A stretch of 64,000 nt of DNA from NCBI GenBank assembly GCA_951406725.2, contig OX597842.1, forward strand, positions 11,222,001 to 11,286,000. Direction: 5' to 3'. The notes beneath the pieces are model-generated. The model searched no databases, was not told the origin of the DNA, and worked only from the letters and a program-made list of their open reading frames with translations. Below, in pieces: positions 5,078-49,728 of this stretch; positions within the stretch are counted from its first letter, which is position 1, and each line of letters opens with the position of its first letter. This DNA is from Octopus vulgaris. Its lineage: Eukaryota. Made by a program: the position numbers and the translations under genes.

Positions 5078-6657
5078 TATGTAAGAGAGTCCTAGCAAGA
5101 CCACTGCAGTTCCTCTTTCAGAGCTTCCTTGCAGCTGGCAAACTTCCAAGAAAACTGAAGGAAGGTCCATTCATAAATGAGGTAGCAGAGCGGAGGCCAA
5201 GAACTACAGACCTATCTCTCTGACCTCACACATCAGCAAGGTCATGGAACGAATAGTCAGAAGGAAACTAATCACCTTCCTTGAAGAAAATGACTTGCTG
5301 CCTGACACCCAACATGGTTTCCGACCAGGAAGAAGCTGCTTAACTCAGCTCCTGCAGCACTATGACTGGGTGCTGAAACAACTGCTCAACCACTCAAATG
5401 TGGAAGTCATATATCTCGACTTCGCAAAGGCCTTCGATAAAGTCGATCATGGAATGATATGTCACAAACTGCGTGATCTTGGCATAGTTGGAAAACTAGG
5501 AGAATGGCTTCATGACTTTCTGAAGAATAGAAGTCAGGTGGTAGCACGCAAATAGTGAGCGGTGTTCCGCAGGGCACTGTTTTGGGACCACTACTGTTCA
5601 TAATGGACCTCTCAGACATGCCCTCAGCCACGCAGAGAGCCACGATCACAAGTTATGCAGATGATACAAAAGTTTCACAGGCAATACAGAACCCTGAAGA
5701 CACTAAGCACCTGCAATGTGAGCTGGACGAAATATACAAGTGGGCTGAAAAGAATAGCATGCAGTTCATTGCTGAAAAGTTTCAAGCTTTATACTATCAG
5801 CATGCAAAACTAAATGCAATACCCAATGAATACACTGGACCCGGAGGGATTGCAATCCCAGAGGCACAATCAGTGCGTGACCTGGGTATTCACATGAGTG
5901 ATGACGCGACCTTTCATGTACATGTTGCTAAACTGACAATGAAATGTAGACGGCTGGCTGGATGGATTCTTAGAACCTTTAGAACAAGAGAACAAGAAAC
6001 CATGATGGTCCTCTGGAAGACACTTGTCCTAAGCCACTTTGACTATTGCTCTCAGCTATGGTCACCATCCAGTGTCAAGTTGATCACAGAACTTGAGGCG
6101 ATCCAACGAAGCTACACGAAGAAGATAGCCTCTGTGCAGCATATGAGCTACTGGGAGAGACTCAAGAGATTAAAGCTCTATTCCCTGGAGCGTAGGCGAG
6201 AAAGATATGCCATAATATATATCTGGAAGATCCTGGAAGGTCTTGTCCCAGACTTTGGCATCGAGAGTCACACAAATGCCAGAACCGGACGCCACTGCGT
6301 AGTACCAAGGACTCCAAATTTGCCATCAAGATGTAGGACAAGATATTGTGATAGCCTGGGCTTCAGAGGCCCACGGCTCTTCAATATCCTCCCGAAGAAC
6401 CTGAGGGACCTGCATGGTGTAGATGCGGATGTCTTTAATGTAGGACTGGATTTCTTCCTGTCAGGTGCCCCGGATGAACCAACTTCACGGCAGGAGGTGC
6501 AGATGAGGGCAGCTGCATCGAACTCTCTCATGCATCAGATGGCGTTTGCTAAAAAGCATCCGTGAGGTAAAACCGTATAGCAAACCAAATGGCGGTGCCC
6601 CAGCATGGCCACAGCTCATTAGCTGAAACTGGAAAAATCAAAATCAAAATCAAAATC
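5078..6657 (+). mobile_element. 5'-truncated CR1-type LINE (reverse transcriptase) with frameshifting deletion, inserted in (TA)n
   Basis: ORFs 5244-5555 and 5555-6565 carry NYRPISLTS (just upstream), QHGFRPGRSC, YLDFAKAFDKV, SGVPQGTVLGPLLF and YADD. In-frame stop near 5178. 3' (AAATC)n tail at ~6635-6657. Confidence 0.93.
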
Positions 6658-8583: not shown

Positions 8584-8985
<402 letters not shown>

Positions 8986-9000
8986 TATATATATATATAC

Positions 9001-16748: not shown

Positions 16749-16849
16749 CAGTGGTTCTCAAACATTTTTGTATCTATGGGTCCCTTTTGATTGCTATTTT
16801 ATTCTGGTGGACTCCCATAGGGTTAGGGTTAGGGTTAGGGTTAGGGTTA

Positions 16850-16880
<31 letters not shown>

Positions 16881-17048
16881 GGTTAGGGTTAGGGTTAGGG
16901 TTAGGTTAGGGTTAGGGTTAGGGTTAGGGTTAGGGTTAGGGTTAGGGTTAGGGTTAGGGTTAGGGTTAGGGTTAGGGTTAGGGTTAGGGTTAGGGTTAGG
17001 GTTAGGGTTAGGGTTAGGGTTAGGGTTAGGGTTAGGGTTAGGTTAGGT

Positions 17049-17089
<41 letters not shown>

Positions 17090-17470
17090 GGTTAGGGTTA
17101 GGGTTAGGGTTAGGGTTAGGGTTAGGGTTAGGGTTAGGGTTAGGGTTAGGGTTAGGGTTAGGGTTAGGTTAGGGTTAGGGTTAGGGTTAGGGTTAAAACT
17201 AGTTCTCAAGGATCTTCTTTCAAATTTCCTATTTTGTTTTTCACACATTTAAATTTTTTAGGTTGAACTATATAACATGTTAGAGAAAGAAACCTCACAG
17301 TTTTATGCAATACATACATCTAAATCAGGGTTTCTTAAATATTTTTTATCTATGGACCCCTTTGTTTATCAATTTATTTTCGTGGATCCCATAACTATTC
17401 GTTGTTTAAAAACTAGTTCCCTAGGATCTTCTTTCAAAATACCTACTTCGTTTGCCACACATTAACTTAT
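16749..17470 (+). mobile_element. hAT-like non-autonomous element, two tandem diverged units
   Basis: Starts CAGTGGTTCTCAAAC; second unit CAGGGTTTCTTAAAT at 17326. Related pieces at ~18000-18226 and (reverse) ~49490-49650. Confidence 0.5.
16818..17195 (+). repeat. Interstitial telomeric repeat (TTAGGG)n, ~63 units
   Basis: Near-perfect TTAGGG array with a few TTAGG/TTTAGGG variants. Confidence 0.97.
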
Positions 17471-29547: not shown

Positions 29548-29574
<27 letters not shown>

Positions 29575-29582
<8 letters not shown>

Positions 29583-29848
29583 ATCACGTGACCGACCAGA
29601 CAATCAGATGTTGCTACACATCGCTAGTCACAATGCGTTCGCATTGTTTTAGCCTTCGAATGACGCCACCCCGCTGGCTAAGCGAGCAGGCCAACAGAAG
29701 AAAGAGTGAGAGAAAGTTGTGGCGAAAGAGTACAGCAGGGATCGCCACCAACCACTACCCGAGCCTCGTGGAGCTTTTAGGTGTTTTCGCTCAATAAACA
29801 CTCACAACACCCGGTCTGGGAATCGAAACCGCGATCCTACGACCGCGT
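29575..29848 (-). mobile_element. tRNA-derived SINE family C variant with TCACGTGATCACGTGA-type tail
   Basis: Head shared with 49729. The tail is also present alone at 37818-37937 and 38598-38718. Confidence 0.8.
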
Positions 29849-33712: not shown

Positions 33713-33771
33713 GTGATACGCACGGATTGCAGTTTCGAGGTATTTGCCTCTTGTCAACGTACGGTAATCAC
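33713..33771 (-). ncRNA. Type I hammerhead ribozyme, U3-A8 variant, in DR-bounded element 33627-34025
   Basis: GUGAUUAC-CGUACG-UUGACAA-GAGG-CAAAUA-CCUC-GAAA-CUGCAA-UC/CGUGCG-UAUCAC. ~40-bp diverged direct repeats at 33627-33670 and 33985-34025. Confidence 0.8.
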
Positions 33772-37472: not shown

Positions 37473-37934
37473 CGTGTGTGTGTGTGTATACATACACATA
37501 TATATGTGTGTGAGTGTATATATGTATATATATATATATATATATATTTACCTTTTACTTGGTGCAATCATTAGAGTGCGCCCTTGCTGGTGCACCGCCT
37601 TGAAGAACTTTTAGTCGAGTGCATCCCCCACCGACCTACATCAGTACTTACTTTTCATGAGCCTGGTACTTATCTTTCCGGGAACTTTTGCCGAACTGCT
37701 AGGTTACTGGGAAATAAACAAACCAGCATCGGTTGCCAAACGGTCGAGGGGGAGAACACAGATAGACAGACACACACACACACACAGACACACATACTTA
37801 TATATATATATATATACCACCGTGATCACCGTGACCGACCAGACCATCAGATGTTGCTACACATCGCTGGTCACAATGCGCTTCGCATTGTTTTAGCCTT
37901 CAAATGACGCCACCCCGCTGGCTAAGCGAGCAGG

Positions 37935-38025
<91 letters not shown>

Positions 38026-38396: not shown

Positions 38397-38742
38397 AAAT
38401 AATATATCTCTGTGTGTGTATGTGTGTGTGTGTGCAACGGGCTTCTTTCAGTTTCTCTCTAACCAAATTCACTCACAAAGATTTAGTCGGGCCGAGGCTA
38501 TAGTAGACACTTTCTCAAGGTGCCATGCAGTGGGACTGAATCCGGAACCATATGTTTGGGAAGCACGTTTCTTACCACGTAGCCACGCCATATATATATC
38601 ACCGTGGTCACCGTGACCGACCAGGCTATCAGATGTTGCTACACATCGCTGGTCACAATGCACTTCGCATTGTTTTAGCCTTCAAATGACGCCACCCCGC
38701 TGGCTAAGCGAGCAGGCTTTTATATATATATATATATATATA

Positions 38743-39681
38743 TAAGTAATACTAAGCAATAAAGGGTTTAGCAACGAATTGCCTTACCACAGACCGAATT
38801 TAGAAATAGCAGTCAAAGAGTTATAGCTATTTCTTCTACTAAAGAGGGAGATCTCAGTAAAAAACACAGCAATTGGAAGGCAGACACAAACAGGTAAGAG
38901 AGAATGAATTGACGGCAATCTATCATACAATTTTAAGTTATCTACGGACGCACGTTTCGAAATCAAGTTTTTAGGAAAGCATAAGAATTAAATATTACTT
39001 AAATTTTCCTCGAATGAGGCTTTTACATGCCGAAGACTACTTGGTGTAATTGATAATTATTCCAAATTAATTAATTTCACCCTTCATTATTACGGATAAC
39101 CATATTTTATCTCAGTAGATGACCATAGCATCTTGTTTTGGCTACACGCGGGTGGGAAGGGGCTGGTGACACAATCCTTTCATTCACACTTTGAGTTTGG
39201 TGATACTAGTTGCGGATTCTAGCTCGCTCTGATACTGAGTTGAGTTGGTGCCTTCTAGTATCTCAAAATTCAATATATAATCACTTATGATTATAGTATT
39301 CTACGCTGAAGAGAAAAGAAGTTTGGGTAATGTAGAATTATTTAATATTTAATTCTTATGCTTTCCTAAAAACTTGATTTCGAAACGTGCGTCCGTAGAT
39401 AACTTAAAATTGTATGATAGATTGCCGTCAATTCATTCTCTCTTACCTGTTTGTGTCTGCCTTCCAATTGCTGTGTTTTTTACTGAGATCTCCCTTTTTA
39501 GTAGAAGAAATAGCTATAACTCTTTGACTGCTATTTCTAAATTCGGTCTGTGGTAAGGCAATTCGTTGCTTAACCCTTTATTGCTTAGTATTACTTAAAT
39601 TTTCCTCGAATGAGGCTTTTACATGCCGAAGACTACTTGGTGTAATTGATAATTATTCCAAATTAATTAATTTCACCCTTC

Positions 39682-39686
<5 letters not shown>
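38743..39686 (+). mobile_element. HHR mini-element: 254-bp inverted copy + 596-bp monomer + 98-bp direct repeat
   Basis: IR 38743-38996 / 39344-39597; DR 38993-39090 / 39589-39686; flanked by (TA)n on both sides. Confidence 0.9.
39300..39399 (+). ncRNA. Type I hammerhead ribozyme
   Basis: UCUACG-CUGAAGA-GAAA...UUUC-GAAA-CGUGCG-UC/CGUAGA. Perfect 6-bp stem I; GUC cleavage predicted after 39393. Confidence 0.87.
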
Positions 39687-39749
<63 letters not shown>

Positions 39750-39843
39750 ATCCAAACAAGAAAACACAAAAAAACACAGCAACGCGAAGACGTGGAACAA
39801 ATAAAGTATTATTGGACGCTCAGGAAAGGAGGAAAGAACGAGG

Positions 39844-39878
39844 GTTTAACGTTTCGATCGGAGCTCTTCGTCGGAAAC
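39844..39878 (-). ncRNA. Minimal hammerhead-like motif (CCGACGA core) in element ~39746-39960
   Basis: GUUU-CCGACGA-A-GAGC-UCC-GAUC-GAAA-CG-UU/AAAC. Paralogue at 49197. Confidence 0.6.
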
Positions 39879-39958
39879 AAAGGAGAAGGAAAGATTCCGA
39901 GAAAGGAAGACAGAGGAAAAGAATTGCTGGCGGTGCTCACGAGGTCACATGTTGAGGT

Positions 39959-40019
<61 letters not shown>

Positions 40020-40021
<2 letters not shown>

Positions 40022-40533
40022 TCACAATCAAGGAACGGCCATAATAGGCCATTCACCCACTAGAAATAACAGCCAAAGCTTCAACCGCAAAATAACATTA
40101 ATTCCGTAAACCAGGAGAAAATTAAAAAACATTTACCCTGTAATTTCTTATACGATGCACCGTTTCATCTACTGTTTAATGGTAAACTAACCTGATTAAA
40201 TTAAATCAAGCCAATCTTCCATATGCCCTTAGATTCGTCAGTAAGAAATAGCCAGATCGGAACAGGTTAGTTTACCATTAAACAGTAGATGAAACGGTGC
40301 ATCGTATAAGAAATTACAGGGTAAATGTTTTTTAATTTTCTCCTGGTTTACGGAATTAATGTTATTTTGCGGTTGAAGCTTTGGCTGTTATTTCTAGTGG
40401 GTGAATGGCCTATTATGGCCGTTCCTTGATTGTGATGTTGAACTTAAAAATGGTCTATGACTATTTAAATTTTTTCCCACTAGGCCGCTGGTGGCAAAAA
40501 AATTCTACAAAATTTTTTGCCACCCTATATTGA

Positions 40534-41028: not shown

Positions 41029-41634
41029 TCTTTATATATAAAAGTCAAGTTGTTTGTCTGTCTCCTACGATTTTGATTCCTAACTACTCCCACATTTTGC
41101 GGTGCAGTTTAACCAAATTCGGGTATCTTATTGTCGTGATTCATATCGAGCCCTTCTGGGTATTAGCGCGCGTCTACGATGAGTCTACGATTTAAAAATA
41201 AAATTTACCATGATTTTTTTCCATTTTAATGCATTTTTTTCGCTATTAAATAAGGGAAGTAACTCTCTAAAAATGTTTGCGATGAGTCAACGATATTTCA
41301 AAAAAATTTATCATCATTTTTCTCATTTTAATGCATTTTTTTCGCTATTAAATAAGGGAAGTAACTCTCTAAAAATGTCTACGACGAGTCTACGATTTAA
41401 AAAAAAAATTTACCATCATTTTTTCCCATTTTAATGCATTTTTTTCGCTATTAAATAAGGGAAGTAACTCTCAAAAAATGTCTGCGATGAGTCAACGATT
41501 TTAAAAAAAATTTACCATAATTTTTTTTCCATTTTTAATGCATTTTTTTTTGCTATTTTTTGGCTATAACCCTCTAAAAATACTTTATAGTTATTTCCCT
41601 TACAAAGCCGAGCAACGCCGGGCGATACTGCTAG
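41029..41634 (+). mobile_element. Non-autonomous Helitron
   Basis: A|TCTTTATATATAAAAG 5' end, subterminal hairpin GCCGAGCAACGCCGGGC, CTAG|T 3' end, internal ~106-bp tandem repeats. Confidence 0.82.
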
Positions 41635-49057: not shown

Positions 49058-49101
<44 letters not shown>

Positions 49102-49196
49102 TAATCCAAACAAGAAAGCACAAAAAACACAACAACGCGACGACGTGGAACAAATATAGTATTATTGGACGCTCAGGAAGGAAGGAAAGAAGGAGG

Positions 49197-49231
49197 GTTT
49201 AACGTTTCGAGTGGAGCTCTTCGTCGGAAAC
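49197..49231 (-). ncRNA. Minimal hammerhead-like motif, paralogue of 39844 (element ~49098-49298)
   Basis: GUUU-CCGACGA-A-GAGC-UCC-ACUC-GAAA-CG-UU/AAAC. Confidence 0.6.
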
Positions 49232-49728
49232 ATAGGAGAAGGAAAGATCCAGAGAAGGGAAGACAGAGGAAAAAAATCGCCAACAGTACACACGAGGTAT
49301 ATATGTATGTATTTCTCTCTCTCTCTACTAAATCTGTGTACTAAATCCATTCACAAGGCTTTGGTCGACCGAAAGCTATAGTACGAGACACCTGCACAAG
49401 GTGCCACGCAATGGGACTGAACCTGGAGCCATATTGTTGAGAGGCAAGCTTCTCACCACACAGCCACGCCTGTGCATATAGAATACACAAAATACTTCCA
49501 TAATTATTTTTATACAATTCCTCACAGTATTTAATTTAATAAATACAATAGGATTTTTGAAATACCGAAGGGATCGGAGGGTCCACCCGAGCAAAAGAGA
49601 AATCAAAGGGTTCCATAGAGCGGAAAAAGGGTTGGGGAAAATTCTTTAGATCCATAAATACAAATACTTAGAATTTTGACATTGGTATAAAATATGGAAT
49701 CGCTTCATAAGTACACGACCATTTTGTG

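Follow-up and report, generated by a model that had tools for sequence, protein, structure and literature searches.

A non-coding hammerhead element of Octopus vulgaris with two fixed end sites, probably inserted by Penelope-type priming of both target strands

Results

Architecture of the locus

The window, a 64,000-nt stretch of the Octopus vulgaris genome (contig OX597842.1, positions 11,222,001 to 11,286,000), contains at 38721-39745 a compound insertion in a (TA)n run. A left remnant of the target (38721-38744) is followed by an inverted, 5'-truncated arm on the minus strand (38743-38997; locus L001), a forward arm on the plus strand (38993-39686) and a right (TA)31 remnant (39684-39745). 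Because (TA)n lies on both flanks, a target-site duplication is unreadable at this locus. The forward arm of 694 nt consists of one 596-nt unit plus 98 nt, and the two arms meet head-to-head at a 5-nt microhomology (38993-38997), five letters that match both. Within the stem II of a hammerhead motif lies the beginning of the inverted arm, whose outer end is at a position termed here site A and carries no tail; the outer end of the forward arm is at a second position, site B.

The sequence-only reading had described a 254-bp inverted repeat, a 98-bp direct repeat around a 596-nt unit, and (TA)n on both sides, and all three are present. Positions 38743-38996 match the reverse complement of 39344-39597 over 254 nt with two mismatches (38769/39571 and 38844/39496), and at one of these the inverted arm has the letter typical of the family. 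The direct repeat (plus strand, 38993-39090 and 39589-39686) is free of mismatches over 98 nt, with a period of 596. Across the family, outer ends are fixed at two sites approximately 100 nt apart, and the direct repeat is therefore the A-to-B “tail” segment; its second copy is the tail itself, ending at site B. Tandem units of 583-597 nt follow each other seamlessly and have no ORF; the longest open frame in the 596-nt unit is 67 aa, and an ORF for reverse transcriptase (RT) and GIY-YIG endonuclease is absent from it. The window copy is typical of its family, which is of a known kind but apparently undescribed.

Several other repeats share this neighborhood. Directly to the right of (TA)31, at 39746-39960 (minus strand), another repeat of high copy number is represented by its truncated end, which has a minimal hammerhead-like motif; relatives lie at 49100-49298 and at 21 of the other loci examined, and it is probably the pLTR of another Penelope family. 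Further minimal hammerhead-like motifs are found at 33763 (-), 43978 (-), 44102 (+) and 49233 (-), the inverted pair 43978/44102 probably being another head-to-head Penelope end. At 40020-40437, next to (TA)n, two perfectly matching inverted arms of 175 nt are separated by a 68-nt spacer; their sequence recurs in loci L158/L159 as a tandem with a period of about 491 nt, and may represent another non-autonomous tandem family that also has inverted copies. Flanked by TA runs, a 128-nt repeat (29568-29691, 37809-37936 and 38591-38718) has very deep coverage in DNA runs; the 596-nt element is inserted in the TA run at its end. The window also contains a (TAGGGT)63 telomere-type repeat (16818-17195), a tandem repeat of 102-103 nt period with 3.7 copies of alternating variants (41172-41557), and a 344-aa open stretch (5531-6562, plus strand), which we take to be a LINE reverse transcriptase-like fragment.

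The hammerhead motif and the fold of the unit

The motif at 39300-39399 (plus strand) is a type I hammerhead, intact as had been claimed, with a predicted cut after 39393. Its parts are a 6-bp stem I, a CUGAAGA core, a long stem II (~70 nt), GAAA, and a stem III that is self-complementary, the palindromic form that PMC4209133 treats as a feature of dimers. Core and stems are complete in the common unit variants. Rfam searches at the gathering score gave no match within the window, the hammerhead falling below threshold, and its local fold alone is unexceptional (z -1.2). When 12 selected variants of the family and of one sister family are aligned, pairing is retained in 96.5% of cells, with compensatory changes in two pairs. 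In the distant relative L057 stem I is fully changed and the core is of the U3-A8 type, a hammerhead variant also described in PMC4209133. The assignment as a hammerhead draws on the complete core, the two compensatory pairs and this relative; ribozyme activity may be presumed.

The monomer as a whole is predicted to fold more strongly in the sense than in the antisense orientation (z -4.2 vs -1.75, 100 shuffles each), and the predicted circular fold of the unit reaches z -6 against 40 rough shuffles. Internal array junctions at the predicted cut site are scar-free. Each unit also has a TATA-like stretch (39274-39280 in the window) about 20-25 nt upstream of the hammerhead, a candidate internal promoter.

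A young dispersed family

A search of the 2.8-Gb genome with the unit gave 2008 candidates, and the 40 that were scored include full-length matches at 98-100%. A 29-mer near the 3' end of the unit has 1277 exact matches genome-wide and a 24-mer below the ribozyme has 674, with none for either reversed control; a lower count of 499, set against these 674, mostly reflects a sub-lineage variant. Copies of the family are 96-100% alike. A sub-lineage with a 583-nt unit is ~88-90% identical, and older sister families are 70-79% identical overall, one of them with a tandem unit of about 600 nt and the same ribozyme. The window itself holds such an older relative at 8702-8993 (~79% identical, sister family 3), a short head-to-head insertion in (TA)n with one arm tailed. 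Family sequence was detected in contigs of all four sequencing runs, one under another species label. The proposal of a recent insertion, originally drawn from the near identity of the arms, is retained in that the family is young; arm identity is a weaker basis for it than the family-wide identity.

We mapped 98 insertions on two contigs (C1 and C2), picked by internal motifs (59 by the 24-mer, 6 by a 75-nt tail match and 33 by the 29-mer, the latter set omitting four C2 loci among the first 100 matches), and 26 further loci from the first search, a length-biased set. Left out were L217, with an internal deletion and under the identity filter, and duplicated copies in L170 and L004/L184. The median insertion length is 517 nt; an arm exceeds one unit in 29 of the 98 insertions, the longest array has 5.2 units, and some copies have two or more hammerheads. 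Within arrays, units differ by a mean of 1.1 substitutions (22 unit pairs), compared with a median of 12 between loci (719 pairs, 10% of which have two or fewer differences).

Two regions carry the same insertion repeatedly, three times with the same flanks within ~10 kb in L170/L171 (C1:216.17-216.18 Mb) and twice within ~10 kb, beside an assembly gap, in L003/L004 (C2:199.95-199.97 Mb). These represent either local duplication or assembly duplicates.

Fixed outer ends and variable inner ends

The outer (3') ends fall at site A in 86 of 145 cases, at site B in 51 and elsewhere in 8. Site A lies around 39591 (range 39581-39601) and site B at 39683 and up to 15 nt beyond. Nearly all outer ends (140/145) are within 20 nt of (TA)4. 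The longest TATA stretch of the unit has none, and microhomology with the target alone is therefore insufficient to explain the choice of site.

Each site lies just 3' of a predicted plus-strand hairpin whose closing pairs are GGU...ACC and which is followed by CU, hairpin A at 39552-39579 and hairpin B at 39639-39679. A conserved long-range helix of 9 bp, likewise predicted and formed by 39542-39550 with 39622-39630 on the same strand, encloses hairpin A and site A. In the consensus fold of 10 relatives from which this helix was derived, pairing holds in 95.9% of cells, and both sides have changed in 4 of 35 pairs; since the sequences are related and the structure comes from the same alignment, this covariation gives moderate support to the conservation of hairpins 5' of both end sites.

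The inner (5') ends, on the other hand, are scattered, occupying 112 distinct positions in 147 arm segments of the 98 insertions; permutation points and inverted-repeat lengths do vary between copies, as the sequence-only reading had anticipated. On C1, 6 of 91 passes end 1-5 nt below the hammerhead cut, where 1-1.7 are expected, and C1 and C2 together have 13 independent arms with 5' ends near the cut among 101 matches. Genome-wide negative-letter patterns in the 9 nt below the cut returned 16 hits, comprising 13 independent truncations (8 of them on C1 and C2), one indel and two duplicates. Control windows returned 20 hits downstream (15-16 truncations) and 17 upstream (8-9 truncations), with classes in this test assigned by eye from 15 printed letters. 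[quoted passage not shown] A hint of a role for the cut site comes from three arms that start exactly there and from the near-perfect palindromes (inner ends no more than 15 nt apart), which make up 14 of 47 head-to-head insertions compared with 3.7 expected by permutation; five of the 14 are centered 5-20 nt below the cut.

Pairing of unlike ends in head-to-head insertions

The two end sites are not combined freely. All 47 head-to-head insertions on C1 and C2 have either one end at A and the other at B (41) or one end elsewhere (6), with no A+A and no B+B; the subset fetched after the pattern had been noticed is uniformly A+B (14/14, P 6e-5 at even odds). Of the insertions with a single arm, 41 have their outer end at A, 8 at B and 2 elsewhere, and an independent choice of ends would therefore give mostly A+A. 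The window copy obeys this rule, with its inverted arm at A and its forward arm at B. A similar preference is seen in sister family 2, where 17 insertions selected on their B end comprise 13 A+B and 4 B+other, with no B+B. The 18 inverted copies of the length-biased set divide into 10 A+B, 3 A+A, 4 A+other and 1 B+other. Among the 41 insertions ending only at A, an inverted B stub was recognizable in just two, one of them a weak 9-mer.

Most head-to-head junctions have 0-6 nt of overlap or a small gap. The inner end of the forward arm adjoins the outer end of the inverted arm, as it does in the window, in 4 of 47 cases, which is about chance; classical L1-type twin priming is therefore not the rule, and this arm contiguity was rejected as an explanation. 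Titles and abstracts of open-access papers gave no earlier report that each strand has its own start site; subscription literature and the supplements of bioRxiv papers may bear on this.

Penelope elements as potential partners

The genome holds Penelope elements whose RT and GIY-YIG frames are open, many of them of 781 aa, the RT match being just below the Pfam cut-off. Among 45 GIY-YIG loci (30 of 150 scored out of 6136 candidates, plus 15 longer stretches), none was an autonomous element sharing the sequence of the unit. No partner emerged from this sample: the pLTRs of the sampled Penelope-like element (PLE) families have no DNA similarity to the unit, and those relatives of the unit that neighbor GIY-YIG genes were inserted separately into (TA)n. 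Matches to PLE proteins near unit copies are likewise separate insertions.

One young autonomous Penelope family (L065:1744-6960, also L061-L068) has an open frame of about 480 aa upstream of the 781-aa RT/GIY-YIG frame, a 504-nt pLTR, and a hammerhead-like motif with a U3-A8 core. Its repeated boxes are presumably CCAAT- and CRE-like. In L067 there is a 40-nt tail on the forward end and none on the inverted copy.

Discussion

Relationship to known elements

Two described groups resemble the family. Metazoan non-LTR retrozymes, as presented in PMC7229834 and bioRxiv 10.64898/2026.07.22.740005, share with it a non-coding tandem unit, a type I hammerhead, low GC (35% here), a highly self-paired monomer, dispersed monomers and multimers, and co-existence with autonomous PLEs. 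The unit of 596 nt is longer than the 170-400 nt given in PMC7229834 (Cervera and de la Pena 2020) and falls within the 51-972 bp range of the preprint (Li, Clavereau and Pollet 2026); the stem II of about 70 nt is unlike that of the retrozymes covered there. Inverted copies, tails and fixed end sites do not appear in the searched text of these two sources, where “inverted” occurs only in one reference title. Retrozymes are defined also by self-cleavage and by accumulation as circular RNA.

The second group is the EN+ PLEs. PMC3846280 (Arkhipova et al. 2013) and PMC8557442 (Craig et al. 2021) describe Penelope insertions as partial tandems with an adjoining inverted, 5'-truncated copy and a tail of 30-40 bp, often at one end only, along with microhomology junctions, microsatellite targets and a hammerhead in the repeat. 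All of these traits recur here, except that there is no ORF and no measurable target-site duplication, the tail is about 95-110 nt, and A+B pairing has been scored in 47 insertions. Chlamydomonas is known to have non-autonomous tandem PLEs. According to PMC8557442 and PMC9977147, Chlamys MRC1 and Chlamys-N4 form head-to-tail multicopies with 5' truncation and a microsatellite target, but they resemble an autonomous family at the 3' end, while our unit matches none of the sampled families, and the Chlamys clade is without canonical hammerheads, which are present here. Absence of an ORF above 67 aa, short tandems, head-to-head inversions and the (TA)n target bear out the earlier proposal of a non-coding PLE satellite. 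By its sequence the family falls within the definition of a non-LTR retrozyme, and it would work like a non-autonomous Penelope element.

A third point of comparison is biochemical. PMC11167929 (Frangieh et al. 2024) reports that the protein of PAc, an Anolis Poseidon element, is a predicted dimer that cuts and extends both strands in vitro, prefers AT-rich DNA, and starts reverse transcription, independently of ribozyme cleavage, at two internal sites that define the tail. An AT-rich target is common to the two systems, as would be two internal start sites downstream of the hammerhead and cutting and extension of both strands. That element differs in being autonomous and in having its sites near each other, within the start of the ORF; coupling of one site to each strand is not reported for it.

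A model of insertion and its alternatives

Taken together, the data favor, with a probability of roughly 0.6, a non-autonomous PLE of the non-LTR retrozyme type in which an RT/endonuclease acting in trans primes both cut strands, one at A and the other at B. The template would be an RNA of more than one unit, circular or else multimeric and uncut, to which a Penelope RT/GIY-YIG protein from another element would bind. The protein would cut a (TA)n run, and reverse transcription would start inside the RNA, just 3' of hairpin A on one strand and of hairpin B on the other. The two cDNAs would stop at variable points and then be joined head-to-head via short microhomology. At the window locus, the left strand would have been primed at A, with about 255 nt copied, and the right strand at B, with 694 nt copied. 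Several observations weigh against this model: the 45 GIY-YIG loci include no autonomous element that shares sequence with the unit, the length-biased set has only 10 A+B and as many as 3 A+A among 18, near-perfect palindromes are in excess, L1-type contiguity of the arms is at chance level, inverted B stubs are recognizable in just 2 of 41 A-only insertions, hairpin covariation is modest, and PMC11167929 does not report that the strands differ in start site. In a more specific and more tentative version, which we think possible, the priming would be coupled and asymmetric, with a dimeric RT/endonuclease placing one subunit on each hairpin of a single circular 596-nt RNA, so that each strand has its own site.

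More than one pass around a 596-nt template had been suggested for the window copy, and arms longer than one unit agree with this; the outer ends are not freely permuted but fixed at the two sites. A circular template is plausible, being consistent with the seamless junctions, the homogeneous arrays and the strongly folded sense monomer. An uncut linear multimer also fits, and the few mixed arrays fit a multimer or later conversion.

One priming event could also suffice if the cDNA folded back, the endonuclease resolved it at A on one side and at B on the other, and central deletions later shortened the palindromes. Such a route, which we consider rather unlikely, naturally explains the excess of near-perfect palindromes (14/47) and is compatible with 24 of the 41 A+B pairs. 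Palindromes are deletion-prone, in favor of the later central deletions. As for its individual steps, PMC3846280 proposes self-priming, and PMC8557442 proposes that the endonuclease resolves the tail. The remaining 17 of the 41 pairs do not fit a simple fold-back of one cDNA and need an extra deletion, eight have no sequence common to the two arms, and the copies are 93-100% identical to the unit. Double priming and fold-back may both be in operation.

Another proposal concerns array length only, not the A+B ends. One or two units would be inserted from linear RNA, and longer arrays would arise through later unequal exchange at the DNA level (satellite birth), with no rolling around a template. 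Unequal exchange is put forward for retrozymes in bioRxiv 10.64898/2026.07.22.740005, and some arrays are heterogeneous: one of the five units of L173 lacks the private variant of its array, and L175 and L177 are mixed. Against it, private variants are common to the tandem units and the inverted arm in L172 and L173, and the arrays are dispersed and short (no more than 5.2 units) and share the A or B end sites of other copies. We regard this explanation as improbable, somewhat more so than fold-back. An assembly fold-back artefact at the window locus is very improbable, given that the arms differ at two positions, the inverted arm having the family letter at one, and that the ends follow the A+B pattern of 41 other loci with different junctions. 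A MITE or other cut-and-paste DNA element, which the long inverted repeat, the TA flanks and the missing coding capacity might suggest, is refuted by variable inner ends (arms of 20 to >1800 nt) and unequal outer ends, with 51 of 98 insertions free of inversion and tandem units and a hammerhead present; the earlier exclusion of a TIR transposon was correct.

Implications

The origin of tandem, inverted and tailed Penelope insertions is called undefined in PMC8557442, and the dependence of retrozymes on Penelope proteins has so far been argued, in PMC7229834 and the 2026 preprint, from co-occurrence and sequence kinship. The family described here is a retrozyme-type unit with the full Penelope integration signature, present in about a thousand young copies and with start sites spaced widely enough to be scored. 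While the architecture itself is already known, the long tail, the twin hairpins and a countable A+B rule are added. Mirror-image copies whose ends fall, with few exceptions, at two different fixed points are a clue to Penelope-type integration, and the rule (41 of 47, with no like pairs) places a quantitative constraint on any mechanism, testable in the existing in vitro system. If the coupled, asymmetric priming of the more tentative version is confirmed, a single step would give rise to both the “tail” and the head-to-head inversion seen in Penelope elements, and this small RNA, whose two similar hairpins lie far apart, would lend itself as a substrate for proof.
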